Assembly (NCBI GenBank): GCA_026415395.1
Contig: JAOAHD010000007.1
Span: 715,304-779,303, forward strand
Source: Candidatus Binatia bacterium
Lineage (GTDB): Bacteria > Desulfobacterota > Binatia > HRBIN30
Length of the DNA: 64,000 nucleotides
Direction: 5' to 3'
In this document: positions 12,716 through 64,000 of the stretch, in pieces
Layout of the letters: each line of letters starts with the position of its first letter
Numbering within the stretch: position 1 is the first letter of the stretch
The notes under the pieces: model-generated
Database searches by the model: none
Told to the model about the DNA's origin: nothing
The model's input: only the letters and a program-made list of their open reading frames with translations
Translations under genes and position numbers: made by a program

Positions 12716-13140
12716 CGAGAGAACCCGTGGGCAAATTGCAGCGCGTGGCGAGGTATCGGGTGCTGTTTGCCGATTGCGACCCGATGCGAATCATGTACTA
12801 CGGGAGCTATTTTCGACTGTTCGAGCTCGGCCGCGCGGAGCTGTTTCGAACGCTTGGCCATCCCTTCCCGAAGTACATTGCGAGCGGTCTTTATCTAGCC
12901 GTGATCGAAACCCATTGCCGTTACGTGCGACCGGCAGTGTACGACGACGAGTTGGAAGTTCTTGCCGGCATCGTAGATGTGAGCGGAGTGAGGCTGCGCA
13001 TCGATTACGAGATTCGCAAGCCAGGGGGCGAGCTTGTTGCTACGGGTTTTACGCGGCACGCAGTAGTCAACGAGCAGGGTCGCCCGGTGCGCCTCCCGAT
13101 AGAGCTGCGGCGCATGCTGTCGGCAGGCACGTCGACCTAA
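12688..13140 (+). CDS. 4HBT/YbgC-like acyl-CoA thioesterase
   Basis: It has the hotdog-fold motif ..YRVLFADCDPMRIMYYGSYFRLFE.. and is about 140 aa. The exact start is uncertain because it overlaps the amidase 3' end. Confidence 0.6.
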   Translation: MGKRLASALTREPVGKLQRVARYRVLFADCDPMRIMYYGSYFRLFELGRAELFRTLGHPFPKYIASGLYLAVIETHCRYVRPAVYDDELEVLAGIVDVSGVRLRIDYEIRKPGGELVATGFTRHAVVNEQGRPVRLPIELRRMLSAGTST

Positions 13141-13248
13141 GAGCAACCTCAAGCCTGGCGGCCGCCGGGTCGGGCTGGGCCTACTTTACTGGTCGGTGTT
13201 CCCACAGTAGAAAAGCTGCACCACCAGCACGCAAACGGAGGCAGTGTC

Positions 13249-14406: not shown

Positions 14407-14625
14407 ATTGAGCGAGCGGCACTCTCCCCGCGCAGACACCTTTGCCACAGCCGAGCGGGCGGATTCCCGCGCTCTAGCGTAAGGGGCGATGATTTTGCCC
14501 CGCGGCGTATGACCCAGCTACGGACTCCCGCTCGAATTTTCCCCGGCAGCAGTGCCCTTGCGTGGTGCGGCAGTTTGGGGATGGTCCGCACCGGGCGTTG
14601 CCCACGCGGGGAGCGGAAAGCTGCG

Positions 14626-46019: not shown

Positions 46020-46739
46020 ATGCCCACGTTACCACAGTTTGCTCCAGCGGAATCGCGAGAAGAGCTGCTTCGGGCAATTGCCAAGGTACAGCGGGGATTG
46101 GTGGAGGAACCGATTGCCCGCTTGCCCTGTGGTGTGGCAGCCATCGATACCCTGCTCCAAGGTGGCTGGCCGCGCGGGCGGCTGAGCGAACTTTACGGCA
46201 CGCGTTCCTGTGGGAAGACCACTTTGGCTTTGCACCTGCTTGCGGCAGTGACGGGCCGGAGAGAAATCGGTGCATGGATCGATGCGGCCGATGCTGTTCA
46301 TCCGTTGTCGCTCGTGGCTGCGGGGGTGGATTTATCCCGCGTGCTTTGGGTGCGTCCGCGTTCGTTCCCGGAAGCGCTCCGCAGTGCCGAGGTTGTACTT
46401 TCTACGAAGGGGATTGCATTAGTGGTTCTCGACTGCGGTGAGCGCGCAGCGCGTTTCCCCAGTCGTGCCGCTTGGCTGCGGTTGCAACGTGCCGCAGCAC
46501 GGTCGCACGCTGTGTTGTTGCTGCTTGCGCCGCACAGTTTGGCTGGCAGTTTTGCTGCGTTGCGCTTGCGCCTACAAGCCAATGGAGGGCAGTGGGTGCG
46601 GGCTGGCCAGAGAGAGTTTTTAGAAGGGCTGCGGGCTTTTGTTGTTGTCGAGCGCAACCGCATCGGGCGTGAAAACCAGCGGCTCGGTTGGGAGGTGCGT
46701 TGGCCGTCTGCTGTCGGTAGCGCGGGGCTGGGTGTGTAA
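46020..46739 (+). CDS. imuA: ImuA (SulA/RecA-fold protein of the mutagenesis cassette)
   Basis: It has ..LPCGVAAIDTLLQGGWPRGRLSELYG..GKTTLALHLLA.. . It is the first gene of the cassette and is followed by imuB and dnaE2. Confidence 0.75.
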   Translation: MPTLPQFAPAESREELLRAIAKVQRGLVEEPIARLPCGVAAIDTLLQGGWPRGRLSELYGTRSCGKTTLALHLLAAVTGRREIGAWIDAADAVHPLSLVAAGVDLSRVLWVRPRSFPEALRSAEVVLSTKGIALVVLDCGERAARFPSRAAWLRLQRAAARSHAVLLLLAPHSLAGSFAALRLRLQANGGQWVRAGQREFLEGLRAFVVVERNRIGRENQRLGWEVRWPSAVGSAGLGV

Positions 46740-46775
46740 GCGTGCACGCGAGGTGTTTTCCTGGAGGCAGGGGCT

Positions 46776-48257
46776 GTGCGGATTGCCTGTCTTTATGTTC
46801 CCGAATTTCCCTTGGCTGCGTGGCTGCGCGCCGAACCCGAACTGCGCACGCAAGCAGTCGTTGTTGTGGAGCGACTCGATCCGCGCAGCCCCCTGTTAGC
46901 AACATCGCGCGCTGCATGGCGCTGGGGCATTGGCCCCGGCATGCGACTCAGCCAAGCACAGAGCCTGTGCCGCACGTTGGTGGTTCGGCCCTGCAGTCGC
47001 TTGTTGCAAGAAAGTGCCCGCGCCGCACTGATGGACGCCGCTAGTTCTTGCTCTCCCTTGGTCGAGCCCGCAGAGGACGGCGTGGTGTACATCGGTCTAG
47101 AAGGGCTCATTGGCCACTGGTGTCGTACGGAGACCCAATGGGCAAGCCAACTCTCTGCACGTTGCGAACGCCTCGGCGTGCCGGCCCGCGTAGCAGTAGC
47201 CAGCACGAAAACGGCAGCCTTGCTGGCTGCGATGCGCCGAGAAGGCGTAACGGTGTTGGACCCAGCGGAAGAAGCCACTTTTCTTGCGCCGGTACCGATT
47301 GCGGCTTTGCGCCCGAGCCCACCCTTGCTTGCTACCTTGGAGCGCTGGGGTATCCACACCATCGGCCAACTCGTGCAACTCCCCTTGGAGGCTGTAGGCA
47401 CGCGCTTGGGGCCGGAGGGGATTGCGCTGATCCGCCGCGCTCGCGGAGAAGAGCTCCAGCCATTGCAACCGCGTCCGTGTCCAATGGTGTTTGAGGAGGG
47501 CATGGAGTTCGATTACGAGATCGACTCTCTCGAACCTTTAACCTTCGTGCTGCGAGCGCTGCTCGACCGAGTCACGGCGCGCCTGGTAGCACGTGGGTTT
47601 GCCTGTGCAGCCTTGCAACTGGGCATGCATTTGTCGGGCACAGGTTGGGAGGATCGCACAGTTGCCGTGGCATACCCAAACAACGAGGTCAAAGCCCTGC
47701 TCGCCTTGTTGCGTGTGCATCTCGAGCAGCAGCCTCCGCAAAATGCCATCGATGCCGTACGGTTGCGGGCGCGCCCCGAGATGCTGCGTGCAAGTCAGCT
47801 CGACTTATTTCGCCCGCCAGGCCCACCCTCGGCTAGCCTGGCCGCCATGCTCGCACAACTTTCCGCTTTGTGTGGCAGCGAGCGCGTGGGAAGCCCAACG
47901 GTGTTGGCCACGCATCGTCTCGACGGTGACGGCATGGTCCCCTTCGGCACGCGCGGGAACTGGCAGAGCGCCGCGCCTCCCCCGAGCGCACTACCACCAC
48001 TGGCCTTGCGCCGTTTTCGCCCGCCGCTTCCCGTGAAAGTGTTTTCCGAGCGTGAACGGCCGGAGTTCGTGCGCGGTCCTGGATTCGGTGGTCGCGTAGT
48101 GTCCTGGGGTGGCCCGTGGCGCATCCGTACGGAGTGGTGGAGCGAAGCGACGTATGTGCGCGATTACTACGACGTGCAACTGAGCGACGGTGGGCTTTAC
48201 CGCCTCTTTCGCGATGAGCAACGGCAACAATGGTTTGCGGATGGGGTGTATGACTGA
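46776..48257 (+). CDS. imuB: ImuB (catalytically inactive Y-family polymerase-like protein)
   Basis: The N-terminus MRIACLYVPEFPLAAWLRAEPELRTQAVVVVE is typical of ImuB, with Y-family fold spacing. It is 493 aa. Confidence 0.8.
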   Translation: MRIACLYVPEFPLAAWLRAEPELRTQAVVVVERLDPRSPLLATSRAAWRWGIGPGMRLSQAQSLCRTLVVRPCSRLLQESARAALMDAASSCSPLVEPAEDGVVYIGLEGLIGHWCRTETQWASQLSARCERLGVPARVAVASTKTAALLAAMRREGVTVLDPAEEATFLAPVPIAALRPSPPLLATLERWGIHTIGQLVQLPLEAVGTRLGPEGIALIRRARGEELQPLQPRPCPMVFEEGMEFDYEIDSLEPLTFVLRALLDRVTARLVARGFACAALQLGMHLSGTGWEDRTVAVAYPNNEVKALLALLRVHLEQQPPQNAIDAVRLRARPEMLRASQLDLFRPPGPPSASLAAMLAQLSALCGSERVGSPTVLATHRLDGDGMVPFGTRGNWQSAAPPPSALPPLALRRFRPPLPVKVFSERERPEFVRGPGFGGRVVSWGGPWRIRTEWWSEATYVRDYYDVQLSDGGLYRLFRDEQRQQWFADGVYD

Positions 48258-48302
48258 CAGCGCTCGTGTTCGGGACATGCTTTGCCGGAAAGGGCAGCAA
48301 CG

Positions 48303-51300
48303 ATGAACTACGTCGAGCTCCGCTGTCATTCGGCATTTCACTTTCTCGCCGCCGCTTCCTTGCCGGAAGACCTCGTTGCCCGCGCGGCTGCTCTCGGGTA
48401 CGACGTGTGTGCTCTAGGCGATGCCGACGGCGTGTACGGTGCCCCGCGCTTTTACCGGGCCGCACGCGAGGCTGGGATCCGGCCGTTAGTGGGCTGTGAG
48501 TTGACACTACGGCGCTGGGGTGAGGAAGGCCAATCCACGCGCCGCCCGCCCACACACTTGTATGTGTTGGTGGCTACTCGCACAGGTTACAGCAATCTGT
48601 GCCGTTTAATCACCCAGAACAAGCGCAAGTTTCCCAAGGGGGCAGCCGTGCTCACATGGGAAGAATTGACGGGGTTTACCGATGGGCTCATTTGTCTGGC
48701 CCGCGACGCATTGTTTCCCGAACCGTTTTGCTTTGCCCCCGAAGCCCTGCAAACACTTCGCCGCTTGTTCCCTGGCCGTTTGTATCTCGAACTCCACCGC
48801 CACGGTGATCCGGCAGAGGAGCGCCACAACCGCATTCTGTGCGACGTGGCAGCCCGCTTCGGTGTGCCCCTCGTGGCCACCAACGACGTGCGTTACGCCG
48901 TACCCGAGCTGCAATCCCTCTGCGACGTGCTCACCTGCATTCGCCACCACACCACGATCGATGCCGCCGGATGGCTGCTCGAGCGCAATGCCGAGCGTTA
49001 CCTCAAACCGCCAGCAGAGATGGAGCAACTGTTCAGCGATTTTCCGGCGGCCGTCCGCAATACACGGGCGATTGCCGAGCAATGCGAATTTACCCTCGCC
49101 AACTTGGGTTATCGTTTCCCGGAATATCCCGTGCCGGCAGGGCAAACAGCGCAAGAGCATTTGCGGGAGTTGGTCTACCGCGGTGCGCGTGAAAGTTACC
49201 GTTGCCTGACGGCAAAAGTGCGGGGCCAGCTCGAACACGAGCTGCATGTAATCGGCAAACTCGGGTTAGCAGGATATTTTTTGATCGTTTGGGACATTGT
49301 TCGCTTTTGCCGCGAGCAAGGAATCCTCGCACAAGGGCGCGGCTCTGCCGCCAACAGTGCCGTATGTTACGCCTTGGGGATCACGGCAGTCGATCCGGTG
49401 GGGATGGAGCTTCTCTTCGAACGCTTCCTTTCGGAAGAACGGGGTGAATGGCCGGATATCGACATTGACCTTCCAAGCGGCGACCAGCGCGAGCGCGTGC
49501 TGCAGTATGTGTATGGCCGTTACGGTCCTCATGGCGCTGCCATGACCGCCAATGTGATCACCTACCGCTTGCGCAGTGCCGTGCGGGAAGTGGGGAAAGC
49601 GTTGGGGTTTTCGTTGGAGCAGCTCGACCGTTTGGCCAAGTTCCTTCACCGCTTCGAATTCCGTGATGCGCACGACAACGACCTCCCGGCTCACATGCAT
49701 GCGGCTGGGCTCGACCCACAGGCCCCCCGATCGCGTTTGCTCGTGCAACTCGTCGAGCGCATTTTGCACCTCCCGCGCCACTTGGGTCAGCATTCTGGCG
49801 GAATGATTATCGCGGCCGGGCGGCTCGACGAAATCGTGCCCTTGGAGCCCGCGCGCATGCCCGGGCGTGTGGTCGTGCAGTGGGACAAGGACGATTGTGC
49901 CGACCTTGGAATCATCAAGGTCGACTTGCTCGGCCTCGGCATGATGGCCGTTTTGGAGGAAGCGTTACCGCTGGTCCGCCAGCACGAAGGCGTGGAGATC
50001 GACCTCGCTCACTTGCCCCCCAACGACCCCAAAACTTACGCGCAACTGCAGCAAGCCGACACGGTCGGCGTCTTCCAAGTAGAAAGCCGCGCGCAGATGG
50101 CCACGTTGCCGCGTCTCCGGCCACGGTGTTTTTACGACTTGGTGGTGGAGGTGGCCCTGATCCGCCCCGGACCGATTGTTGGTCAAATGGTGCATCCTTA
50201 CCTGCGCCGCCGCGCCGGACGCGAACCGATTACGTACCCCCATCCGTCGCTCGAACCTATTCTGCGGCGCACCCTTGGGGTGCCGTTGTTTCAAGAACAG
50301 TTGCTACGTATTGCCATGACGGTGGCCGGCTTCTCGGGTGGCGAAGCCGAAGAGCTCCGGCGGGCCATGGGGTTTAAGCGCTCGCTCGAACGGATGCGCG
50401 CCATCGAAGCCAAACTGCGTGCCGGCATGGCTGCCCGCGGCATCGTCGGCAAAACGGCGGAAGAAATCGTGCGCAGCATTACCTCGTTTGCTCTTTATGG
50501 GTTCCCTGAATCACATGCTGCCAGCTTTGCCTTGTTGGCGTATGCTTCGGCATACCTCAAGGCACACCATCCCGCAGCGTTTACTTGCGCCTTGCTGAAC
50601 AATTGGCCCATGGGTTTTTATCACCCCGCTACCATTGTGAAGGATGCCCAACGCCACGGGGTGCGGGTGCTGCCGATCGATGTGACCCGCTCGACGTGGC
50701 GGTGCAGCTTGGAGCGGATGGCGGCTGGGGAGGGAAGCCGGCTTTGCTTGCGGCTCGGGCTCAAGTACGTGCGGGGTTTGCGCGCAGAAGCAGGCGAGCG
50801 CATTGTGCGGGAACGAGAAACAAAACCCTTTGCCTCGCTGGAGGATTTTGTTCATCGCTGTGCTTTGCGCGAGAGCGAGCTTGCCACGCTGGCGGAAATC
50901 GGGGCATTGGCAGCGTTCGGACACACGCGCCGGAGTGCCTTGTGGCAAGCCGCTGCTGTTGCGCGTGGCCCGCTGTTTGCCGCTGCAACCGAGCAAGACC
51001 ACAATAATGAAGTCGAGCCGAGCCCTCTGCCAGAGATGCTCCCCGTGGAGCGTACTTTGGCAGACTTAAAGGGAAGTGGCGTTACCGTTGGCCCGCATCT
51101 CATGGCACATTGGCGAGCGCAGCTCGAGGCACGAGGCTTTGTACCGGCACGCACTCTACCCCACTGCCACCACGGACAGTGGGTGAAAGTGGCGGGGCAT
51201 GTCATCGTCCGCCAACGCCCAGGTACAGCCAAGGGCTTTTGTTTTCTCACGCTGGAAGACGAAACTGGCTTGGCCAATGTGGTTCTGACCCCGGCATTCT

Positions 51301-51458
51301 TCGAACGGCACCGTACCTTGTTGCTCACCGCACCTTTGCTGGAAGTAGAAGGTTATTTGCAGCACGTCGATGGGGTCATTCACGTTCGTGCGCAAAGATT
51401 GCATCGCCTTGCGCTCTCCCAGGCACTCACCTCCTCTGAGCTCACAAGCGACGCATGA
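48303..51458 (+). CDS. dnaE2: error-prone DNA polymerase DnaE2 (ImuC)
   Basis: It starts with the PHP domain MNYVELRCHSAFHFLAAAS.. and is about 1050 aa of Pol III alpha homolog without a tau-binding tail. ATG 48303 is preferred. Confidence 0.9.
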   Translation: MNYVELRCHSAFHFLAAASLPEDLVARAAALGYDVCALGDADGVYGAPRFYRAAREAGIRPLVGCELTLRRWGEEGQSTRRPPTHLYVLVATRTGYSNLCRLITQNKRKFPKGAAVLTWEELTGFTDGLICLARDALFPEPFCFAPEALQTLRRLFPGRLYLELHRHGDPAEERHNRILCDVAARFGVPLVATNDVRYAVPELQSLCDVLTCIRHHTTIDAAGWLLERNAERYLKPPAEMEQLFSDFPAAVRNTRAIAEQCEFTLANLGYRFPEYPVPAGQTAQEHLRELVYRGARESYRCLTAKVRGQLEHELHVIGKLGLAGYFLIVWDIVRFCREQGILAQGRGSAANSAVCYALGITAVDPVGMELLFERFLSEERGEWPDIDIDLPSGDQRERVLQYVYGRYGPHGAAMTANVITYRLRSAVREVGKALGFSLEQLDRLAKFLHRFEFRDAHDNDLPAHMHAAGLDPQAPRSRLLVQLVERILHLPRHLGQHSGGMIIAAGRLDEIVPLEPARMPGRVVVQWDKDDCADLGIIKVDLLGLGMMAVLEEALPLVRQHEGVEIDLAHLPPNDPKTYAQLQQADTVGVFQVESRAQMATLPRLRPRCFYDLVVEVALIRPGPIVGQMVHPYLRRRAGREPITYPHPSLEPILRRTLGVPLFQEQLLRIAMTVAGFSGGEAEELRRAMGFKRSLERMRAIEAKLRAGMAARGIVGKTAEEIVRSITSFALYGFPESHAASFALLAYASAYLKAHHPAAFTCALLNNWPMGFYHPATIVKDAQRHGVRVLPIDVTRSTWRCSLERMAAGEGSRLCLRLGLKYVRGLRAEAGERIVRERETKPFASLEDFVHRCALRESELATLAEIGALAAFGHTRRSALWQAAAVARGPLFAAATEQDHNNEVEPSPLPEMLPVERTLADLKGSGVTVGPHLMAHWRAQLEARGFVPARTLPHCHHGQWVKVAGHVIVRQRPGTAKGFCFLTLEDETGLANVVLTPAFFERHRTLLLTAPLLEVEGYLQHVDGVIHVRAQRLHRLALSQALTSSELTSDA

Positions 51459-54471: not shown

Positions 54472-55662
54472 TCACCCGCGGGGTAACCCCAAAAGGCGCT
54501 GGGCGATGATGTTGCGCTGGATTTCCGAAGTGCCGGACGCGATTGTCATGGCCCGGGCCATCAGCCAGGCATGCTGCCACGCGCCGTCGCGCAGCACCCG
54601 TTCGTCTCCTCGCCACAGTTGGGCGTAGGGTCCCTGTGCGGTCAGGGCGAAGTCGAGAAAGCGCTGGGCGAGCTCTGATCCATAAAGCTTAAGGAGCGAC
54701 ACATCGGTGGGCGTGCGGCCGTGTTGTAGGTCGCTGACCAGCGCTAGGCCGTGAAAGCCCATAATTGCCACCTCGGTCCAAAACTCGGCAAAGCGCTGGC
54801 GTACGAGTGGATCACCTGCCCGACCGCTGGACTGCAACCATCGGCGTAACTCTTCGAGCTCTACTTGCCGCCGCACGTGATCGACGAGCAACAACGTACC
54901 GCGCTCGTGGCCGAGCGCGGTGAGAATGACTTGCCATCCATTGTGCAATTCGCCGACCAAGTTGGTGACCGGCACTTGCACATTTTCAAGGAACACTTCG
55001 TTAAAGTCGCTGTCTCCGGTAATTTCACGCAGCGGCCGCACAGTTACTCCTGCACTGCGCATGGGCAAAATCAGGCAGCTAATGCCCTTGTGTGGAGCGG
55101 CCTGCGGGCCGGTACGCACGAGAAAGAGCCCGTAATCGGCTTGCTTGGCATAAGTCGTCCACACCTTCTGACCGTTGACCACAAAAACATCTCCACGCTG
55201 CTCGGCGCGTGTTCGGAGGGAGGCTAAATCCGAGCCAGCATTGGGTTCGGAGAAGCCGAGGCACCAGAGTTCCTCGGCGGACAACAGCGGCGGTAGATAC
55301 CGCTGGCGCTGTGCAGGAGTGCCGAACACGAGCAAGGTGGGAGCGAAAATGCTGACGGCCGCACCGTTCACCAGTGGAGGTCCATCAGCACGCGCTAATT
55401 CTTGCTGCACAGCCAAGTGCTCGAGCAGCGAAGCCCCTCGTCCGCCGACTTCCTCTGGAAAGTGGACGGCGACCCAACGCTCTTGTTGCAAGGCCCTCTG
55501 CCAGGCGCGGAGAAACTCCACCCGCGCGCCCATGTCCTGGCTGTGGCGCAAGCCTCTCCACTCCGCGCACGCACTTTGGTGCGCCATGAGCCACCGGCGA
55601 AACTCACAGCGGGTTTGCTCCACGCGTTCGAGGGGTTCAAAATCCATGGCGGCGTGAGTCAA
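54472..55662 (-). CDS. acyl-CoA dehydrogenase
   Basis: It has the ACAD fold (..GFSEPNAGSD..FVVNGQKVWTT..) and a C-terminal catalytic-base region. It is 396 aa. Confidence 0.8.
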   Translation of the reverse strand: MTHAAMDFEPLERVEQTRCEFRRWLMAHQSACAEWRGLRHSQDMGARVEFLRAWQRALQQERWVAVHFPEEVGGRGASLLEHLAVQQELARADGPPLVNGAAVSIFAPTLLVFGTPAQRQRYLPPLLSAEELWCLGFSEPNAGSDLASLRTRAEQRGDVFVVNGQKVWTTYAKQADYGLFLVRTGPQAAPHKGISCLILPMRSAGVTVRPLREITGDSDFNEVFLENVQVPVTNLVGELHNGWQVILTALGHERGTLLLVDHVRRQVELEELRRWLQSSGRAGDPLVRQRFAEFWTEVAIMGFHGLALVSDLQHGRTPTDVSLLKLYGSELAQRFLDFALTAQGPYAQLWRGDERVLRDGAWQHAWLMARAMTIASGTSEIQRNIIAQRLLGLPRG

Positions 55663-55735
55663 TCAATCGATTGACGCGAAATATGCGAAATGGTAGCCGA
55701 AGTCAAATTGCCAGATTTTCACGGGAGGAAGGGTC

Positions 55736-56653
55736 ATGCTGCTGGAAGGTCGAGTTGCTGTAGTCACTGGAGCGGGCCGCGGCGTGGGTCGCGGTATTGC
55801 TTTGGAGTTAGCGCGCAACGGAGCCAAGGTCGTTGTGAACGACCTCGGGTGTGGGGTCGATGGCCAAGGGAAGGCAGAAGACCCGGCCATGCAAGTGGTG
55901 GAAGAGATTCGCGCGATGGGCGGGCAGGCGGTGCCCAACTACGACTCCGTGGCTTCGTTCGAAGGGGCCAAGCGGATTATCGATACGGCGCTCGAAAATT
56001 TTGGCAGGATCGACATCCTTGTGAACAATGCCGGTATTTTGCGTGACCGCACGATGGTGAAAATGACGGAGGAGGATTTCGACGCGGTCATTGCCGTCCA
56101 TCTCAAGGGAACGTGGAATTGCGGCCGGCACGCGATCCCGCACATGCGCGAACAAAACTACGGCCGCATCATCAATATCACTTCGAGCGCGGGGCTGCGG
56201 GGGAATTTCGGGCAAAGCAATTACGGGGCGGCGAAGGCTGGGATCATGGGCCTGACCCTGTGTTGGGCGCTGGAGCTTGCTCGCTACGGCATCACCGTGA
56301 ACGCAATGGCGCCAGCTGGCCTCACCCGAATGGTGGCAACGATGCCGGGAATGGAAAACAAGGAGCCGCCGCACGAAATGCACCCGGATCGCAATGCCCC
56401 CATGGTGGCGTTTCTCGCATCGGAAAAAGCCGCCCATGTGAACGGCCAAATTTTTGGGCGGCGGGGGTACGGATTTACCCTGTTCCAGCAACTGCGGCCG
56501 ATTGCCATGATGTACAAGCCGGGAGGGCTCACGGCCGAGGAAATTGCGGCCAACTTCGATGGGGTCTTCCTCGAACATTTGCAGCCCATTGGCATCCCGC
56601 AGTTGCGTCGCGACGACAACAAAAAGGAAGAGAAAAAGGAAGAAAAGAAGTAG
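55736..56653 (+). CDS. MFE-2 (HSD17B4)-type (3R)-hydroxyacyl-CoA dehydrogenase, SDR family
   Basis: It has GRVAVVTGAGRGVGRGIALELARNGAKVVVNDLG and ..NNAGILRDR..SSAGLRGNFGQSNYGAAKAG.., which closely mirror the MFE-2 dehydrogenase domain. Confidence 0.75.
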   Translation: MLLEGRVAVVTGAGRGVGRGIALELARNGAKVVVNDLGCGVDGQGKAEDPAMQVVEEIRAMGGQAVPNYDSVASFEGAKRIIDTALENFGRIDILVNNAGILRDRTMVKMTEEDFDAVIAVHLKGTWNCGRHAIPHMREQNYGRIINITSSAGLRGNFGQSNYGAAKAGIMGLTLCWALELARYGITVNAMAPAGLTRMVATMPGMENKEPPHEMHPDRNAPMVAFLASEKAAHVNGQIFGRRGYGFTLFQQLRPIAMMYKPGGLTAEEIAANFDGVFLEHLQPIGIPQLRRDDNKKEEKKEEKK

Positions 56654-56662
56654 GGAAGCCAG

Positions 56663-58096
56663 ATGCGTGAAGTAGGAATTCGGTCGCAAGCCGCCTACAT
56701 CCCCATGTTGCGCTTGTCGCTGGGGGCGATCAGCGGCGGGCGCAAGGCCAGTGGCGGGAGTGGCGAGCGGGCAGTGGTGTACTTTGATGAAGATCCCGTC
56801 ACCATGGCCGTGGCAGCCGGTATGGCTTGTCTTGAGGGAATCGACCGCACGGAGGTGGACGCTCTTTATTTTGCTTCTACCTCCTACCCGTACCGGGAGA
56901 AGCAAGGAGCGGCATTAATTGCCAAGGCTTTGGATTTGCGCCGCGATGTGATGACTGCGGACCTGACGGACTCCACGCGTGCGGGCACCGCAGCGGTTCG
57001 GGCTGCGATGGATGCGGTGCGGGCTGGCAGTGCCCGCAATGCCCTGGTGATTGCGGCGGACGCGCGCCCGGCTCCTCCCCGGAGCCCACTGGAACGCAAC
57101 TTCGGTGATGCTGCAGCCGCCTTTTTGATCGGGGGCGACGACCTTGCAGCGGTGTTCGAAGAGCAGGTGTTCCTGGCTGAAGAGATCATCGATGTGTGGC
57201 GCACGGAGTGGGATCGCTTCGTGCGCTCGTGGGAAGACCGCTTTGTCGTGGAACGCGGCTACAGCGAAAACATCGTTGAGGCCATTCGCGCCCTGTTGAA
57301 GAAAACTGGAACCGCGCCGGGAGATTTCTCGAAGCTCGTAGCGTACACCCCGGATGCCCGCAGCTTGGCGGGTGTGGCACGGGCGACCGGGTTCGAGGCG
57401 AAGACCCAGGTGCAAGATGCGCTGTTTGGCAAGGTGGGAAACTGCGGGGCCGCCTTTGCTCCGCTGCTGCTGGCCGCGGCCTTAGAACAAGCTCGTGACG
57501 GCGAGCGTTTGCTGTGGGCGAATTATGGCGACGGGGCCGATGCAATGCTGGTGCGTACTACCGACAAGGTAGCGAGTTTGGGTAAACGTCGTGGCGTGCA
57601 GTGGCACCTGGCGCGGCGGCGCGAGTTCGCGGACTACGACCGCTATTTGAATTACCGGAACCTTTACCCAAGCGAGAGCGACCGGCGCGCCGGCCAAGGT
57701 GTGTCGGCAACGGTGCATTATCGTGACCGCAACGAGGACATCGCTTTCCACGGTTACCGCTGCCGCCGCTGTCGGACGGAGCAGTTCCCGTTTCAGCGAG
57801 TCTGCTTTCAGTGTTTTGCGCGCGACGACTTCGACGAAATCCGCTTGGCGGAGCGCCACGGGAAGGTGATGTCGTATACGTTCGACTATTTCGCAGGCAG
57901 CCCTGACCCACCGTTGATCGTAACGACCATTGAAATTGACGGCGGCGCGAGGGTGTACTTGCAAATGACCGATGCCACACCGACAGAGGTCAAGCTGGAT
58001 ATGCCCGTGGAGTTCACCTTTCGGAAGATTCACGAGTATGGGGGCACGCCCAACTATTTTTGGAAGTGTACCCCGGTCAGGAATATCGCCTGGTAA
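56663..58096 (+). CDS. HMG-CoA-synthase-like (thiolase-fold) domain fused to DUF35 Zn-ribbon/OB-fold domain
   Basis: The N-terminal ~340 aa have HMGCS-like topology (..ALYFASTSYPYREKQGAALIAKALDL..). The C-terminal CRRCRTEQFPFQRVCFQC + OB fold is typical of DUF35 scaffolds. The gene is followed by an SCP2-type thiolase. Confidence 0.65.
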   Translation: MREVGIRSQAAYIPMLRLSLGAISGGRKASGGSGERAVVYFDEDPVTMAVAAGMACLEGIDRTEVDALYFASTSYPYREKQGAALIAKALDLRRDVMTADLTDSTRAGTAAVRAAMDAVRAGSARNALVIAADARPAPPRSPLERNFGDAAAAFLIGGDDLAAVFEEQVFLAEEIIDVWRTEWDRFVRSWEDRFVVERGYSENIVEAIRALLKKTGTAPGDFSKLVAYTPDARSLAGVARATGFEAKTQVQDALFGKVGNCGAAFAPLLLAAALEQARDGERLLWANYGDGADAMLVRTTDKVASLGKRRGVQWHLARRREFADYDRYLNYRNLYPSESDRRAGQGVSATVHYRDRNEDIAFHGYRCRRCRTEQFPFQRVCFQCFARDDFDEIRLAERHGKVMSYTFDYFAGSPDPPLIVTTIEIDGGARVYLQMTDATPTEVKLDMPVEFTFRKIHEYGGTPNYFWKCTPVRNIAW

Positions 58097-58129
58097 CCAG
58101 GAAGTGACCAGCGCAAGCGGAGGGCAACG

Positions 58130-59287
58130 ATGAACGCAGAAGCAATCCGCGACAAGGTAGCGATCGTTGGCATGGGCTGTTGCAAGTTCGGGGAGAACTG
58201 GGACAAGGCCCCGGAAGACATGATTGTCGAGGCGGCCTTCGAGGCGTACGAAGATGCGGGCATCGAAGACCCGCAAAAGCAAATCGAAGCCGTGTTTTGC
58301 GGGGCGGTGTATCCATCGAAAGGCACAGCGGAGGTGGCCGATGCCCTCAAGCTTTTCGGGCGTCCGGTGAGCATGGTCCAAAACTATTGTGCCACCGGAA
58401 CCGACGCCCTGCGGTACGGAGTGTTCGCCGTCGCGTGCGGGATGTACGACACGGTGATGGTGGTGGGCTTCGATAAGCCGAAAGACCGCGGTGTGAGCGG
58501 TCCGAGCGCAGTCACCACCGGGGTGCGGGGGCTCCCCATGACACCCGCGGGCTGGTTTGCCTTATGCGCCGCACGTTACTTCGAAACTTACGGGGCTACC
58601 CGCGAGGATTTGGCCAAAATCGCGGTGAAGAACCACCATAACGGCACACTGGCCCCGAAGTCGATGATCAAGAAAGAAATCACGGTCGAAGATGTGTTGC
58701 AGGCGCCGATTATCTCGTGGCCCTTCGGTCTTTACGATTGCTGTGCACAGTCGGACGGAGCGGCCGTAGCAATTCTCACTCGTCGCGACTTGGCGAAAAG
58801 TTTTCGCGACGATTACGTCCTCATTCGGGCGATTTCCATCGCCTTGGGCCCGAACCCGCAGTCGGATCCGTCGTTTGATTTCCTCCGCTGGAAACCAACG
58901 ATCTATGCAGCGCAAGACGCTTACCGGCAAGCAGGCATCGCGAATCCGGCTAAGGAAATCCACGTGGCGCAGGTGCACGACTGTTTTACCCTGACCGAGT
59001 TGCTGACCTATGAGGACTTGGGGTTTGCGGAAAAGGGCTCTGCAAAAGAGCACATTGCCGCCGGAACCTTCGAACTGGGTGGGGCGCTGCCGGTGAACAC
59101 CGACGGTGGATTGAAGAGTTTCGGCCATCCGACCGGTGCGACCGGAATTCGCATGCTGTACGAGAACTATAAACAGCTTCAGGGAAAAGCCGGACCCCGG
59201 CAGGTGAAAAACGCCACCGTGGCGTTGAGCCACAACCTGGGCGGTGCTCCGCAAACTTGTGGTGTGGCGATTGTCACAATGCCCTGA
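58130..59287 (+). CDS. SCP2/SCPx-type thiolase
   Basis: It has VAIVGMGCCKFGE, the nucleophile region QNYCATGTDAL, and the C-terminal ..DGGLKSFGHPTGATG.. . Confidence 0.8.
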   Translation: MNAEAIRDKVAIVGMGCCKFGENWDKAPEDMIVEAAFEAYEDAGIEDPQKQIEAVFCGAVYPSKGTAEVADALKLFGRPVSMVQNYCATGTDALRYGVFAVACGMYDTVMVVGFDKPKDRGVSGPSAVTTGVRGLPMTPAGWFALCAARYFETYGATREDLAKIAVKNHHNGTLAPKSMIKKEITVEDVLQAPIISWPFGLYDCCAQSDGAAVAILTRRDLAKSFRDDYVLIRAISIALGPNPQSDPSFDFLRWKPTIYAAQDAYRQAGIANPAKEIHVAQVHDCFTLTELLTYEDLGFAEKGSAKEHIAAGTFELGGALPVNTDGGLKSFGHPTGATGIRMLYENYKQLQGKAGPRQVKNATVALSHNLGGAPQTCGVAIVTMP

Positions 59288-59450: not shown

Positions 59451-60710
59451 CTAAAGCGCAGCCGCTCGGGGCCGTTTCTCCATGGCGAGCACGACGACGG
59501 GCAGTAATACCGCCGCCATCAAAATGGAGTAACTCCTCCACACCAACGCGTAGCTGCCGAAGTGGTCGAACATGGCGGCGGAGTACACATTTGCCAGCAT
59601 GGTGCTGCCCATGCACACCATCATGGCCACCCCAAGCCATCGGCCGATGCGGGCGGCGCCGAAGAGTTCGGTTAGAAGCAGGGCGAGAAGCGCTACGATG
59701 CCACTGTTGACGAGTCCGTAGAAGATTGCCCACGCGAACCAGGCAGCGGAGCTGTGTAAGTTCCACAGGAGGACGGAAGCGAGCGTCAACCCGGCGATGG
59801 TGCCTACGAGTGCGGGGCGAGCACCCCAGCGGCCCGAGATGCCGCCAACGAGCGGCGCGCCGAGGGCACCGACAAGAAGCTGCGTACTCAAGACTTGCGA
59901 GGCTTGAGCCTGGGCAAACCCGAGGTCGGTGAGGTGCGCGTGCAAGTGAAGCTGCACAGAGGTCACGAAGGCGTACACGCCGGCGTAGACCACGAGTAAA
60001 AGTAGAAACGAGCGCCAAGGAGTGGCCGGTTCTGTTGCTTGGCGGGTTGAGGTTTGAGCACGGACGTGTTGGTCGCGGCCGTCATCTGCGCGCATGGTGG
60101 CGAGCACGATTAGAGCAAGGGCGAGGTAGGCCCCTCCCAACGCCAAGAGCGCGGCTTGCCAACCACGGTGCTGGAGAATTGCCGCGATGGCCAGGGGGAT
60201 CATCGCGTTTAGCAAGTTGTCCCCACCGTTGAGCACGCCGACAGCCCATCCGCGCCGCTTGGTGAAGTGGCGGACGACTAAGGCTGAAGCTGCAACCGAG
60301 CCGATCGCTGCTTGCCCCGGCCCGATGAGCGCCATGGTGGGGTACAGCCACGACACCGACGGAATCCACGCCAACGCGAGCGTGCACGTTCCCACGATTA
60401 GCGCGCCGCTGGCGAGCACGGTCCGTGCCCCAAACCGGTCTGTGGCGAGCCCAGCAAGGCTCATCGCGCCCACCATGAGAAGCATGCGTAGGCTCATTGC
60501 CGAGGCGAACGTGGTGCGGTCGATCTGCCATGCCTGGGTCATAGGCTTCATCAGCACGGCGAAGGCGAGCGAGGAAGCGGACTGGGCGCTGACGGCACAC
60601 ACCCCAACAGCGAGCAAGAGCCAGGAGCGCAAGGGCTCGCCCCACAACGTCGACACGGCTGCCGGTGGCAGGGATTGGGGATCAGTCGAAGTAGTGCCCC
60701 GCATTGACAT
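59451..60710 (-). CDS. MFS transporter
   Basis: It has 12 predicted TM helices and the MFS loop motif ..GLATDRFGART.. . Start at MSMRGTT (60710) avoids overlap with the upstream SDR. Confidence 0.7.
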   Translation of the reverse strand: MSMRGTTSTDPQSLPPAAVSTLWGEPLRSWLLLAVGVCAVSAQSASSLAFAVLMKPMTQAWQIDRTTFASAMSLRMLLMVGAMSLAGLATDRFGARTVLASGALIVGTCTLALAWIPSVSWLYPTMALIGPGQAAIGSVAASALVVRHFTKRRGWAVGVLNGGDNLLNAMIPLAIAAILQHRGWQAALLALGGAYLALALIVLATMRADDGRDQHVRAQTSTRQATEPATPWRSFLLLLVVYAGVYAFVTSVQLHLHAHLTDLGFAQAQASQVLSTQLLVGALGAPLVGGISGRWGARPALVGTIAGLTLASVLLWNLHSSAAWFAWAIFYGLVNSGIVALLALLLTELFGAARIGRWLGVAMMVCMGSTMLANVYSAAMFDHFGSYALVWRSYSILMAAVLLPVVVLAMEKRPRAAAL

Positions 60711-61461
60711 CGAGGGCTTGGCCAGTGACAGCACGCGACAAATCGGAGGCGAAGAACACAACGGTGTCCGCCACTTCATCCGAGTCGGGAATGTGATTTA
60801 AGCAAGTGCGGCTAGCGATGTCGTCGCGCACTTCCTCGAAGGTGCGATTTTGTTGCTTTGCTAACCAGCGGAAATAGCCGGCGAGCTTTTCGCTCCAAAT
60901 GTAGCCGGGTACGATCGAGTTCACCCGGATGCCGTAAGGCCCGAGTTCTTTCGCGAGTGTGCGGGCTGCGATCAATAGAGCGCCCTTGGATGCTGCGTAG
61001 CCACCCATGCCCGGCTCAATCACCCGGGCTGACATCGAGTTGACGAAGATGATCGAGCCCCCGCCTTGTTTGCGCATGTGTGGCACCACGCTCTGCGTGA
61101 GCTGCAACGACCCGAACACATTGACTTCGAACACCTCCCGCCACTGCTGCAAATCGACTTCTTCGAAACGGGGTTCCACGCCGCCACGGAAGGCATTGTT
61201 GACCAGCACGTCAATGCGCCCGAATTTGTCGATCACTGCTTCCACCAGGTCGGTGCACGCCGAAGATGACGCAATGTCCGCCGGTAGCGCCACAGCCTGC
61301 CCGCCGCGCAGACTGATTTCACCAGCAACCTCTTCGAGGTATTCCCGGTTGCGGGCCGCCAACGCCACACGCGCCCCTTCACGCGCGCAGGCAAGCGCAA
61401 CGCTGCGCCCGAGACCTGGCCCGACACCCGATACCAGCACGACCTTTTGCGCGAGCAACAT
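60682..61461 (-). CDS. short-chain dehydrogenase/reductase (classical SDR)
   Basis: It has VVLVSGVGPGLGRSVA and the catalytic YAASK, and is about 260 aa. Confidence 0.75.
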   Translation of the reverse strand: MLLAQKVVLVSGVGPGLGRSVALACAREGARVALAARNREYLEEVAGEISLRGGQAVALPADIASSSACTDLVEAVIDKFGRIDVLVNNAFRGGVEPRFEEVDLQQWREVFEVNVFGSLQLTQSVVPHMRKQGGGSIIFVNSMSARVIEPGMGGYAASKGALLIAARTLAKELGPYGIRVNSIVPGYIWSEKLAGYFRWLAKQQNRTFEEVRDDIASRTCLNHIPDSDEVADTVVFFASDLSRAVTGQALDVNAGHYFD

Positions 61462-61676
61462 GGGGACCCTGCGCCGCCGTAAATCAGGAAACGCATGGTC
61501 ATTCAACAACGGTGCTCAGGAACAAGGCTCCACGGGAGCTTTCCCTCCAAGCCCAACCCGGTCGAGCGGTTGCACCCCGGGGGATGGGGCGATGGGATGG
61601 GGTAGGCATCCTTGCCACGATCTAGCAGGGCAAGGTAAGTTGCGTTTCCGACGTGTCTGGAGGGAAGGATCGAAGA

Positions 61677-64000
61677 ATGTCGTGTTCAAAGTGGCGGTGT
61701 TTGCTTTTGATTGGGCTGCTGCTGGCCGGAGCGGGGTGCGGGAGCGACGGAGAACCTGCTGGTCCCGTAGGCGTTCCGGGAGGAGCAAACGCATGTGGCG
61801 AGCGCTGCGTGATTTTGTCTCCTGGAGATGACGACCTGGAAACGATTCAGCGTGCGCTCATCGAAGCGCGGCCGGGCGATACGATTTTGCTCCGCGCCGG
61901 GAGGTATAACCTCACTGGCCAGCTTTCGCTGGACGTGGACAATGTGACCATTCGTGGAGAGGGGCACGACAAGACCGTTCTGTCCTTCCGGAATCAGGCT
62001 GCGGGCGCTGAGGGGTTTCTGGTGACCGCCAATGATTTTACGATTGAGGACCTGGCGCTCGAGGACAGTCCTGGGGATTTGCTCAAAATTCTCGGCGGCA
62101 ACAACATTACCATTCGTCGAGTGCGCGGGGAGTGGACGCGGGGGCCCAATACGAACAACGGAGCCTACGGCTTTTATCCAATCGAGTGCACCAACGTATT
62201 GATCGAGGACTCGGTGGTGCGCGGCGCGTCGGATGCCGGCATTTACGTCGGTCAGTGCCACAATATCATCGTGCGCCGAAACTACGTATACGAAAACGTG
62301 GCTGGTATTGAGATCGAGAACTCGACGGACGCGGATGTCTACCAAAACACAGCCACGAGGAATACCGGTGGAATTCTCGTGTTCAACCTGCCGGGATTGC
62401 CGTTTATCGATGGCCGACGCACGCGCGTCTTCGACAACGACATTGTCGAAAACAACACCGCCAATTTTGCCGCGCCAGGGACGACGGTGAGTGCGGTACC
62501 GAAGGGGACCGGATTGATGATCCTCGCTAACGATGAGGTGCAGGTGTTTGGCAACCGCTTTCGAGGTAACGGCACAAGCCAAGTGCTGATCATCAGTTAC
62601 AACACCGCGCAAATTATTGGGAACCTGCGCGGCAACGATCCGCGCTACGACAAGTATTCGGAAACGCTGTTCATTTACGACAACACCTACGAAGATGGCG
62701 GAGCGGATCCGGATCCCGACACGGGAGCGCTGATCGGTCCGATCACCGGTGTGCCCCTGCCCGACATCTTGATCGACGGTTTCGAGGATCCACGCAAGTA
62801 CGTGGATGGGAAGTTACCGGATGCGTTGCGGATTTGTGTCCAAGACCCTCAGGCACGCTTGTTCAACGTGGATCTCCCGCGCTTTGGAGGCCGAGCGAGT
62901 AGTGACCGAGCGCCCTACGATTGCCGTTTTCCCTTGTTGCCGAAGGTAGTCATCCTGGGCGTAGGTGAGGAAGCGCCCCAACCCTTGCCATTCCCTTCGC
63001 CACCACCGGCCACGCCGACGCCGGTTGCGGGCAACGTGGAAACTCGATGTGCCGTCGGTCCGGGAAACGGGGTGAACTTTGACGTGCAGGATGAGCCGTG
63101 TGAATTCCTCTCCAGCTATCGCTTCTTTGTTGGCCGGATGCGCGAGTTGCAGCCCAATCGGGGCGTGGTGCCGTACGACCTCAACACACAACTCTTCTCC
63201 GACTACACGAACAAACATCGCTTCGTGTACTTGCCCCCTGGCACCAAGGCCCACTACGACTCGCAGGCAGCGTTCGACTTCCCGGTGGGAACCGTGATCA
63301 TTAAGAACTTTGCCTATCCCTACGACATGAGGGCCCCGCATGCAGGAGAGCGTTTGCTGGAGACGCGTTTGCTCGTGCGGCGCGAAGATGGCTGGATTGG
63401 CTTGCCTTATGTGTGGAATGCAGAGGAAACCGAAGCGCGGCTGCGCGTTCTGGGAACGCCGTTGCGTGTGTCAGCCATCCAGCAGGACGGGCAGGAGCGC
63501 ACGTTTGACTATAACGTTCCGAACGCAAACCAGTGTAAAGAATGCCACCGCGAGAGTTTCAAGAACACGGGCCCAATCGGCACGAAAGCACGAAACCTGA
63601 ACAAGACGTTCAACTACCCAAGCGGGCCTGAAAATCAGCTTACGTACTGGACGCGGATTGGGATCCTGCAAGGAGCTCCGGTAGATCCAGAGACCGTGCC
63701 CCGAGCCGCAGTACTGGAGGACCCGAGCACTGGTACGGTGGAAGAGCGGGCACGAACTTACCTCGATGTGAATTGCGCGCACTGTCACAACCCCGCTGGA
63801 GCTGCACGGACGACCGGGCTCTACTTAGGCATCTCGGAAACCGAGCCCTTGCGCTTGGGCATTTGTAAGTCTCCGGTAGCTGCGGGGCGGGGCACGGGTG
63901 GGTTCCGTTACGATATTGAACCGGGCAAGCCGGATCAGTCAATCTTGCTGTTCCGGATGATTTCGCTGGACCCGGGTATTGCCATGCCAGAGCTCGGTCG
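61677..64000 (+). CDS. lipoprotein: parallel beta-helix repeat domain fused to diheme c-type cytochrome domain (3'-truncated by window edge)
   Basis: An RBS GGAGGG/AAGGA precedes ATG 61677, and the signal plus lipobox is LLLAGAGC. Beta-helix repeats are present (..NNITIRRVRGEW.., ..GIYVGQCHNIIVRRNYVYENVAGIEIENSTDADVYQNTA..). Two CxxCH heme-binding motifs, CKECH (~63536) and CAHCH (~63775), follow. The frame is open to the window end, so it is missing from the ORF track. Confidence 0.75.
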   Translation, partial: MSCSKWRCLLLIGLLLAGAGCGSDGEPAGPVGVPGGANACGERCVILSPGDDDLETIQRALIEARPGDTILLRAGRYNLTGQLSLDVDNVTIRGEGHDKTVLSFRNQAAGAEGFLVTANDFTIEDLALEDSPGDLLKILGGNNITIRRVRGEWTRGPNTNNGAYGFYPIECTNVLIEDSVVRGASDAGIYVGQCHNIIVRRNYVYENVAGIEIENSTDADVYQNTATRNTGGILVFNLPGLPFIDGRRTRVFDNDIVENNTANFAAPGTTVSAVPKGTGLMILANDEVQVFGNRFRGNGTSQVLIISYNTAQIIGNLRGNDPRYDKYSETLFIYDNTYEDGGADPDPDTGALIGPITGVPLPDILIDGFEDPRKYVDGKLPDALRICVQDPQARLFNVDLPRFGGRASSDRAPYDCRFPLLPKVVILGVGEEAPQPLPFPSPPPATPTPVAGNVETRCAVGPGNGVNFDVQDEPCEFLSSYRFFVGRMRELQPNRGVVPYDLNTQLFSDYTNKHRFVYLPPGTKAHYDSQAAFDFPVGTVIIKNFAYPYDMRAPHAGERLLETRLLVRREDGWIGLPYVWNAEETEARLRVLGTPLRVSAIQQDGQERTFDYNVPNANQCKECHRESFKNTGPIGTKARNLNKTFNYPSGPENQLTYWTRIGILQGAPVDPETVPRAAVLEDPSTGTVEERARTYLDVNCAHCHNPAGAARTTGLYLGISETEPLRLGICKSPVAAGRGTGGFRYDIEPGKPDQSILLFRMISLDPGIAMPELG

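Follow-up and report, generated by a model that had tools for sequence, protein, structure and literature searches.

A single-chain member of the widespread TIGR03805/TIGR03806 beta-helix and diheme cytochrome family in Candidatus Binatia

Results

The gene and its reading frame

The DNA analyzed here (the window) is a 64,000-nucleotide stretch that ends inside a gene on the forward strand. The features of this gene are the following.

61659..61669, + strand: purine-rich stretch GGAGGGAAGGA preceding the ATG at 61677, Shine-Dalgarno-like on reading of the sequence, with a putative function
61677..64000, + strand: fused beta-helix/diheme cytochrome gene, an open frame with 774 of its 800 codons inside the window
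61677..61739, + strand: signal peptide with probable lipobox MSCSKWRCLLLIGLLLAGAGC, Cys21 being the candidate lipidation site
61845..62783, + strand: right-handed parallel beta-helix domain TIGR03805, aa 57-369 (NCBIfam, Pfam, AF2, Foldseek)
62784..62960, + strand: cap closing the beta-helix module at its C-terminal end, aa 370-428 (within the beta-helix HMM derived from fused homologues)
62961..63071, + strand: Pro-rich interdomain linker, aa 429-465, including PLPFPSPPPATPTP (from the sequence)
63099..63578, + strand: heme-1 beta-sheet domain, aa 475-634, ending in CKECH
63579..64000, + strand: heme-2 domain, a class-I-type cytochrome c, aa 635-774 of 800, cut by the window end

The initial annotation had proposed a continuous open reading frame (ORF) of at least 774 codons from the ATG at 61677, encoding a beta-helix and a cytochrome as one polypeptide. 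Translation of positions 61677 to 64000 bears out both claims, since the frame is open for 774 codons up to the window end, with no stops, and carries both modules. The extension to the stop codon, which had been suggested as a check, is supplied by the complete protein, P0001, an 800-residue NCBI entry from a ‘Candidatus Binatia bacterium’ MAG, on a 1.28-Mb contig. It is 100% identical across the 774 residues and places 26 C-terminal residues beyond the window. The sole cause of the absence of this ORF from the ORF list is that the gene overruns the window end.

Domain architecture

The two family models that had been named as checks both gave scores exceeding their curated cut-offs. The beta-helix domain scored 383.3 bits with TIGR03805 (curated cut-off, 141.5), with aa 57-369 spanning positions 1-314 of the 314 in the model. 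The cytochrome half (aa 475-774) scored 387.9 bits with TIGR03806, the SO2930 diheme cytochrome model (curated cut-off, 313.3), despite the 26 missing residues. The proposed Pro-rich linker and the two CxxCH motifs were likewise found, at aa 436-449 (PLPFPSPPPATPTP, 62982-63023), aa 620-624 (CKECH, 63534-63548) and aa 700-704 (CAHCH, 63774-63788).

The N-terminal region reads L-A-G-A-G-C, with the cysteine as residue 21. Positions −3 to +1 are thus G-A-G-C, a mismatch to the canonical L-[AS]-[GA]-C, and comparison of LLLAGAGC with the lipobox [LVI][ASTVI][GAS]C shows Gly instead of Leu, Val or Ile at position −3. The lipobox LAG-C of the initial annotation is therefore approximate, and its cysteine stands, being present here and kept in homologues. 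The protein is probably a lipoprotein, because homologues retain a cysteine past the hydrophobic core (LVGC, VASC, LAAC). The AF2 model has a pLDDT below 50 across aa 1-36.

Pfam Beta_helix (PF13229) and NosD (PF05048) also match the beta-helix domain, which AF2 models with a pLDDT above 90 as regular three-strand rungs and which Foldseek matches to solved beta-helices with a probability of 1.00. The cap (aa 370-428) has a pLDDT of 90-97. Across 258 beta-helix domains, 14 polar residues are 100% conserved, and an invariant polar patch comprises Y164, Y167, D186, Y190, Q193, N207, E212, E214 and N215. Conservation this strict argues for a dedicated site and against a scaffold. No His, Cys or Met is conserved in the same 258 domains, and the beta-helix has no known redox cofactor.

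Confidence falls to a pLDDT of 59 at aa 441-450 of the linker. In split homologues this position holds a stop codon and the signal peptide of the second gene, of which the junction here retains neither a leftover start codon nor a signal peptide. The whole chain is modeled confidently, including the relative placement of the domains (pLDDT, 90.4; pTM, 0.89). Neither the protein nor any of three profiles found more in the PDB than generic matches to the beta-helix cap or to CxxCH.

The two hemes

Both CxxCH motifs and Met770 are ~100% conserved in 325 cytochrome domains, the exceptions to CxxCH amounting to one or two non-gap rows. Met770 belongs to an invariant Met-Pro pair (Met770-Pro771, 63984-63989) in the heme-2 domain, and no other His or Met is conserved in the 325 domains. 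This pattern indicates a His/Met pair for heme 2 and the lack of a conserved sixth ligand for heme 1. Judged from these alignments, heme 2 is an ordinary His/Met cytochrome c, with the coordination predicted by residue conservation. The heme-1 domain also contains two invariant lysines, K513 and K543.

Since beta-helix matches swamped the Foldseek search of the whole model, the cytochrome half was re-modeled and searched alone. The fold of the heme-1 domain may be cytochrome c'-beta/P460-like. Pfam Cytochrome_P460 gave no match at E values up to 10, and neither a profile of the entire cytochrome half nor one restricted to heme domain 1 matched a c'-beta/P460 sequence in the PDB.

The SO2930 module occurs elsewhere with the beta-helix replaced by a PQQ sugar-dehydrogenase-like GSDH domain (P0150), and some relatives are extended by further cytochrome c domains. 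These architectures suggest a portable redox module that is used on varied partners.

Distribution of the fused and split forms

Fused proteins of this kind are frequent and already present in databases; they are one form of a gene pair that is widespread in bacteria. When metagenomes were sampled without bias, using a cytochrome-only query, both modules were present in 69 of 72 informative loci; the beta-helix gene lay directly upstream of a separate cytochrome gene in 68 of these 72, and one was fused. The statement in the initial annotation that the two usually occur as adjacent separate genes was thus accurate. The rarity that it implied for the fusion was not borne out: 79 of the best 120 protein clusters, 27 of the best 80 species-representative genomes and 24 of the best 150 representatives at 50% identity are fused, and fused proteins of 770-800 aa already carry the NCBI label ‘SO2930 family diheme c-type cytochrome’. 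The other 41 of the best 120 clusters are tandem double beta-helix proteins without a cytochrome domain. The 27 genomes encode the fusion as one ORF and belong to at least five phyla, with Binatia, Myxococcota/‘delta’, Planctomycetota, Halieaceae, Oligoflexus and Ketobacteraceae among them.

The TIGR03805/TIGR03806 arrangements include separate genes in a 1:1 ratio, fusions, and a cytochrome gene preceded by a tandem double beta-helix; in P0008 a double beta-helix is itself fused to the cytochrome. The family counts 3477 representatives at 50% identity with E ≤1e-30, and is found in aerobic heterotrophs (Lysobacterales, Halieaceae, Hyphomonas, Saprospiraceae, Planctomycetota). Both genes of split homologues bear lipoprotein-type signal peptides.

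In the first genome sample, the cytochrome was in the same frame as the beta-helix in 53 of 53 split pairs, mostly with one stop between them. This pattern is a selection bias, because the ranking favored matches that align in one frame. Programmed read-through or selenocysteine insertion between the split genes was rejected in view of the mixed stops of these 53 pairs (TAA/TAG/TGA, 22/20/11). Moreover, the second gene begins with a start codon and a lipoprotein signal peptide of its own, and the frame offsets obtained with the cytochrome-only query are nearly random (22:15:31), both of which count against read-through.

Genomic neighborhood

Flanking ORFs were clustered all against all, and Pfam domains were tallied at 80 loci for the ORFs closest to the gene on its upstream and downstream sides; neither approach revealed a generally conserved operon partner. 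TonB-dependent receptors adjoin the gene in ~9 of the 80 loci, all of them below every curated subfamily cut-off. Six planctomycete loci have an aldehyde dehydrogenase as a neighbor, and SDRs occur sporadically. Glycoside hydrolases, lyases and sugar transporters do not recur beside the genes at the 80 loci; neither the window nor these related loci have nosZ, nosF, nosY or nosL as neighbors, nor do ABC-transporter genes recur. The SDR upstream of the gene in the window was considered as an ortholog of the SDR that is conserved downstream in close Binatia relatives and was rejected, the two sharing only 29% identity.

Discussion

Proposed function

The protein is an ordinary member of a known, uncharacterized family: the searchable literature and the PDB hold no function, phenotype or solved structure for either TIGR03805 or TIGR03806. 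It is most likely a cell-envelope redox enzyme. The extracytoplasmic redox role suggested by the initial annotation is a reasonable reading of the architecture; the polymeric or carbohydrate-like substrate named with it is suggested by the resemblance of the beta-helix fold to alginate epimerases and lyases, and no carbohydrate-active genes lie nearby to back it.

The best explanation, which we put forward with moderate confidence, is that the protein is the single-chain form of a two-component cell-envelope redox module made of TIGR03805 and TIGR03806. After export, the protein would probably be tethered to the membrane through a lipidated Cys21. The beta-helix would then offer its invariant polar surface of Asp, Glu, Tyr, Asn and Gln, poor in metal ligands, for substrate binding. 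Heme 1 would close a c'-beta/P460-like beta-sheet domain and, having no conserved sixth ligand, would probably be a reactive, open-coordination heme. Heme 2 (CAHCH, Met770) would serve as an electron relay connecting heme 1 with the periplasmic electron-transfer chain. The open frame, the domain families, the heme motifs, the pattern of conservation, the obligatory pairing of the modules and the frequency of the fusion are results of the analysis; the catalytic part, the heme coordination, the direction of electron flow and the lipidation are elements that we infer. The lack of conserved His, Cys or Met and of a known redox cofactor in the beta-helix counts against this explanation, as do a genomic neighborhood that points to no substrate and a literature in which neither family has an assigned function.

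A more speculative reading, which we hold unlikely, is that the proteins form an unrecognized class of heme enzyme, combining an open c'-beta/P460-like heme and a Tyr/Asp/Glu patch on the beta-helix with a His/Met heme wired to the respiratory chain. Heme 1 might be modified by K513 or K543, the beta-helix would be cofactor-less, and the active site would lie at the interface between the domains (or subunits). If true, the chemistry could be new, with oxidation or reduction either of a bound polymer or of a small species of nitrogen or oxygen.

Alternative explanations

The beta-helix could instead be a lyase, epimerase or hydrolase acting on an acidic glycan, with the cytochrome in an accessory role, donating or withdrawing electrons, for instance in oxidative cleavage or to feed another enzyme. 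Its top Foldseek matches are indeed AlgE4 (E = 6e-9) and AlgE6, an alginate epimerase/lyase, the lyase RbmB, PL6 lyases and DFA-IIIases (E values of 6e-9 to 1e-6), and a PDB profile search matched AlyGC, a PL6 alginate lyase (E = 8e-6), in an alignment limited to the N-terminal cap. With its invariant Asp, Glu, Tyr, Asn and Gln and its lack of metal-type ligands, the conserved surface looks like a carbohydrate site; the adjoining TonB-dependent receptors and the family member in which a sugar-dehydrogenase-like domain replaces the beta-helix point the same way. However, identity to the characterized enzymes is 10-19% and TM-scores are 0.3-0.58, a fold-level likeness common to all CASH/pectate-lyase-like helices. 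The Pfam matches to Pectinesterase, Glyco_hydro_28 and Pect-lyase_RHGA_epim are all below threshold, and the protein fits no polysaccharide lyase or epimerase family model. The neighborhoods lack recurring carbohydrate-active genes, and the TonB receptors fall under all the subfamily cut-offs. No lyase or epimerase is known to require a cytochrome, which also counts against this explanation, and on balance it is improbable. Somewhat less plausible still is a pure electron carrier, that is, an outer-membrane or periplasmic diheme lipoprotein for extracellular or periplasmic transfer with the beta-helix as a scaffold or adhesin. Shewanella studies placed SO2931 among the outer-membrane diheme c lipoproteins that do not belong to the Mtr system, and deleted it along with the outer-membrane cytochromes (PMC5357785, PMC5829830, PMC10986466). 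This literature assumes such a role for it, and the additional cytochrome c domains of some relatives would fit, but the same three papers give SO2931 no function, and the family is distributed among aerobic heterotrophs not known as metal respirers. A heme for electron transfer alone would be expected to have a conserved sixth ligand, which heme 1 lacks, and the 14 polar residues that are 100% conserved in the 258 beta-helix domains speak against a scaffold.

We regard as very unlikely a NosD-like maturation or delivery factor, in which a partner enzyme would receive a metal or sulfur species from the beta-helix, with the hemes holding that species in the proper redox state. The Pfam NosD model reaches 61.8 bits against a gathering score of 23.6, and TIGR04247, the NosD model, aligns with aa 57-228 (E = 6e-13); the latter score is 48.1 bits against a curated cut-off of 300, and the Pfam model covers generic repeats over the same span as PF13229. 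Neither nos nor ABC-transporter genes recur nearby, and the beta-helix is devoid of conserved His, Cys or Met. It is hardly credible that an error of sequencing or assembly joined two genes by removing a stop codon or shifting the frame between them. The source is a MAG, and split genes are often one stop apart, so that a single base error could fuse same-frame pairs. Nevertheless, the same single ORF recurs in 27 independent species genomes and in 79 protein clusters, and for this reason the fusion is not an artefact of assembly. Among these are close relatives, 80-87% identical, that were assembled separately. In addition, no remnant of a start codon or signal peptide is left at the Pro-rich junction, and AF2 models the whole chain confidently. 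The gene encoding a beta-helix and a two-heme cytochrome in a single chain is genuine.

Significance and relation to known systems

The gene itself adds little to the many copies of this fused architecture in databases. The interest lies in the family, which has thousands of members in many phyla of environmental bacteria and in which, with hardly an exception, a beta-helix and a diheme cytochrome go together. Work on Shewanella has so far handled it as just another outer-membrane cytochrome. A possible c'-beta/P460-like heme 1 with no conserved sixth ligand and the reuse of the module with a PQQ-type domain offer experimenters concrete hypotheses.

Among known systems, the cytochrome c'-beta/P460 proteins (7s5o, 6hiu, 8brk, 2je3) share no detectable sequence similarity with the heme-1 domain, and the Foldseek matches to them are not significant. 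Unlike those proteins, the heme-1 domain precedes a second heme domain, of the His/Met type, and is coupled to a beta-helix. A Lys-heme cross-link of the P460 type would have the invariant K513 and K543 as candidate sites. Diheme cytochrome c peroxidases and MauG are exported and combine one open-coordination heme with one His/Met electron-transfer heme. The analogy is one of logic only, given that their fold is different and that they show no sequence or structural match to the cytochrome half. The A-modules of AlgE4 and AlgE6, the alginate epimerase/lyase and the PL6 lyases share the right-handed parallel beta-helix at a similar length, but differ in sequence (10-19% identity), have no family HMM that matches this protein, and neither carry nor pair with a cytochrome. 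With NosD (TIGR04247/PF05048) the beta-helix repeats align over ~170 residues, in contrast with a score of 48 bits against a cut-off of 300 and with a neighborhood free of nos genes. The closest system is the TIGR03805/TIGR03806 pair, with Shewanella SO_2930 and Hyphomonas HNE_0200 as founding members for TIGR03806. The protein scores above both curated cut-offs, hundreds of relatives have the same domain order, heme motifs and type of signal peptide, and fused relatives of 770-810 aa already bear these family names in NCBI. The protein departs from the typical pair only in having the fused rather than the commoner split layout, and in nothing else substantial.

Identity of the gene and of its product

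The open reading frame starting at ATG 61677 continues without a stop codon through the final base of the window, in agreement with the at least 774 codons proposed in the initial annotation; it is missing from the window's ORF list because the listing drops ORFs running off an end. A protein search returned P0001, an 800-residue protein of an NCBI Candidatus Binatia MAG (1.28-Mb contig), with 100% identity across all 774 residues, so the window lacks only the last 26. The beta-helix repeats, Pro-rich linker and two heme motifs attributed to the protein were all found in the translated sequence. The gene and the stretch before it have the following features:

61659-61669, purine-rich stretch GGAGGGAAGGA, 5' of the start codon
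Signal peptide ending ...LLLAGAGC, with Cys21 as candidate lipidation site
aa 436-449, Pro-rich stretch PLPFPSPPPATPTP
aa 620-624, heme motif CKECH (heme 1)
aa 700-704, heme motif CAHCH (heme 2)

The signal peptide and Cys21 of the claimed lipobox are present, and the box is slightly non-canonical, with Gly at -3 (LLLAGAGC). Since this Gly is present but the Cys after the hydrophobic core is kept in homologues, the sequence data extend as far as a probable lipoprotein.

The HMM checks proposed earlier were run. TIGR03805 (parallel beta-helix) matched aa 57-369 with 383 bits against a curated cut-off of 141.5, and TIGR03806 (SO2930 family diheme c-type cytochrome) matched aa 475-774 with 388 bits against 313.3. 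Pfam gave generic Beta_helix and NosD repeats only on the beta-helix half, and no model at gathering threshold on the cytochrome half. The gene is real, was correctly identified, and is an ordinary representative of a fused form already on record for this gene pair, itself known but uncharacterised.

Fused and split architectures

The two domains had been described as usually encoded by adjacent separate genes, and this is correct: metagenome contigs scanned with a profile built from stand-alone cytochromes only gave 68 split pairs, in all of which the cytochrome gene directly follows the beta-helix gene, versus 1 fusion, along with 3 cytochromes without an upstream beta-helix (8 further contigs were too short for classification). 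This less biased scan was run because the species-genome sample (one genome per species, >597 loci) favours relatives of the fused query; architecture there was taken from the best 80 loci, with a single fused ORF in 27 and two adjacent genes in 53. The 27 carriers belong to Binatia, Myxococcota/'delta', many Planctomycetota, Halieaceae, Oligoflexus, Ketobacteraceae and others. HMMs for each half were used to sort the best 120 protein clusters anew: 79 were beta-helix-cytochrome fusions and 41 were tandem double beta-helices without a cytochrome. When 1.84 billion representatives were searched exhaustively with a profile, 3477 proteins scored E<=1e-30, the best 150 comprising 114 stand-alone cytochromes, 24 fusions, 8 proteins with extra C-terminal heme domains and 4 with other N-terminal parts. 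The implied rarity of the fusion is not supported by these counts; the fused form, though in the minority, is frequent, occurs in several phyla and is not unusual. NCBI already names fused examples of 770-800 aa 'SO2930 family diheme c-type cytochrome', and the TIGRFAM description presumably itself notes possible fusion of the TIGR03805 and TIGR03806 families.

In split pairs (loci L007-L084) the cytochrome gene starts 0-30 nt past the beta-helix stop (e.g., at L041 11155-11160 and L051 11110-11116; one example of such a junction reads ...SAR*MLRR...), which suggests translational coupling. This gene encodes its own lipoprotein-type signal peptide, and in fused proteins the Pro-rich linker takes the position of the stop/start junction and second signal peptide. 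Where the frames coincide, loss of one stop codon would create the fusion. In the first genome sample, the two ORFs of every split pair shared a reading frame, as a rule interrupted by just one stop codon; this was a sampling artefact that arose because the ranking favoured hits aligning in a single frame. Read-through or selenocysteine at the junction was rejected, given the mixed stops (22 TAA, 20 TAG, 11 TGA), the second gene's own start codon and the frame offsets of 22:15:31 in the unbiased metagenome sample.

The pairing holds in every architecture: tandem double beta-helix genes have a cytochrome gene immediately downstream, and in P0008 a double beta-helix and the cytochrome form one protein.

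Genomic context

Upstream in the window lie a divergent SDR, an MFS transporter, a thiolase/DUF35-type/SDR/acyl-CoA dehydrogenase group and an imuA-imuB-dnaE2 cassette, none of which recurs beside relatives. The loci are as follows:

44025-45818, +, neighbouring ORFs of 281 and 291 aa with many GGGM(L/F)N-type repeats
46020-51458, +, complete imuA-imuB-dnaE2 'mutasome' cassette
46020-46739, +, ImuA, RecA-like
46776-48257, +, ImuB, Y-family polymerase-like
48282-51458, +, DnaE2, error-prone polymerase III alpha paralogue
54472-59287, lipid or steroid-side-chain-type beta-oxidation group: acyl-CoA dehydrogenase (-), SDR, KAS-III-like and ChsH2-type OB-fold (DUF35) protein, SCP-x-type thiolase
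59451-60779, -, MFS transporter, next after the beta-oxidation group

The 281- and 291-aa ORFs could represent a single gene broken by a frameshift. The latter has a borderline Pfam Beta_helix match (25.2 bits versus 25.9), and the hydrophobic stretch at its C-terminus, with basic residues after it (...LVLGVLALLLVAQRKLWAKG), looks like a sorting or anchor signal.

Close Binatia relatives (80-87% identity) have only downstream genes in common, namely a 79-aa ORF, an SDR, then purA and serA. The 79-aa ORF directly follows the fused gene (L001 11476-11712; L003 12443-12682; L002 3056-3331), has the consensus ...GREILxEEQASPNYRMR...LSQxxPGGLEGHxVxH, and shows no Pfam match or signal peptide; the equivalent slot falls past the end of the window. 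The window's upstream SDR is not an ortholog of the relatives' downstream SDR (29% identity).

No general neighbour was found across 80 loci, and the beta-helix-cytochrome unit therefore seems self-contained. TonB-dependent receptors, which fit no curated subfamily, occur at ~9 of these loci, mostly in Lysobacterales, and an aldehyde dehydrogenase at 6 planctomycete loci. At the Oligoflexus locus L043, the gene after the fused protein (12385-14634, +) weakly matches di-heme cytochrome c peroxidase (34.6 bits versus a cut-off of 150).

Conservation, modularity and proposed function

Both CxxCH motifs are essentially invariant among 325 distinct cytochrome domains, as is Met770, which lies within an MPE motif 66 residues past CAHCH; no other His or Met is conserved. 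Heme 2 is therefore predicted to be a class-I heme with the ordinary His/Met ligation, and heme 1 to lack a conserved sixth ligand from the protein. K513, K543, K731 and Y578 are near-invariant. Across 258 beta-helix domains, 14 polar residues are 100% conserved (Y164, Y167, D186, Y190, Q193, N207, E212, E214, N215, N224, N254, N259, N293 and N336) and no His, Cys or Met is, a pattern that favours a specific surface for binding or catalysis, one lacking a typical redox-metal site.

An AF2 model of the whole chain, built on an 86-sequence alignment (pLDDT 90.4, pTM 0.89), shows a right-handed beta-helix as the N-terminal half. Among solved structures, this half comes closest to AlgE4 and AlgE6 (mannuronan C5-epimerases), an alginate epimerase/lyase, RbmB, PL6 lyases and DFA-IIIases, at E 6e-9 to 1e-6 with identity of only 10-19% and TM-scores of 0.3-0.58. 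Foldseek gave no significant match for the heme-1 domain, with six c'-beta/P460 entries recurring below threshold, and profile searches gave no sequence link of the cytochrome half to c'-beta/P460. The predicted resemblance is a fold-level lead of moderate strength, not family membership.

SO2930 modules scoring above the TIGR03806 cut-off also occur in other architectures. In place of the beta-helix, P0150 (1013 aa) has a PQQ glucose/sorbosone-dehydrogenase-like domain, with ~350 residues between the domains lacking any match, and P0243 (1033 aa) has He_PIG Ig-like and PSCyt1 domains; in 8 proteins the module is followed by a further cytochrome c/TIGR02603 heme domain. With these several partners, it behaves as a portable redox module joined to various catalytic or binding partners. 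At the N-terminus of some cytochrome or fused proteins of the family stand two dockerin-like repeats of calcium-binding type (GDCNGDGxVxINELIxGVN; L165 8630-9952, L166 8608-9996, P0027), which may point to their incorporation into a larger complex at the cell surface of these lineages.

A cell-envelope oxidoreductase is the best-supported reading of the window protein; the beta-helix would supply the conserved substrate surface, heme 1 would be the reactive heme, and heme 2 would connect to soluble electron carriers. A pure electron carrier, as SO2931 is assumed to be in the Shewanella literature (PMC5357785, PMC5829830, PMC10986466), is less well supported, the invariant polar residues of the beta-helix counting against it. 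Other less well supported readings are an enzyme active on polysaccharides, with the cytochrome as accessory; a NosD-like delivery factor, the protein having generic NosD repeats and clearly failing the curated NosD model (48 bits versus 300); and an assembly artefact, the fused ORF being found in several phyla. The interest lies in the family's uncharacterised function and in the leads from heme 1, the conserved residues and the SO2930 fusions, not in the fusion itself.
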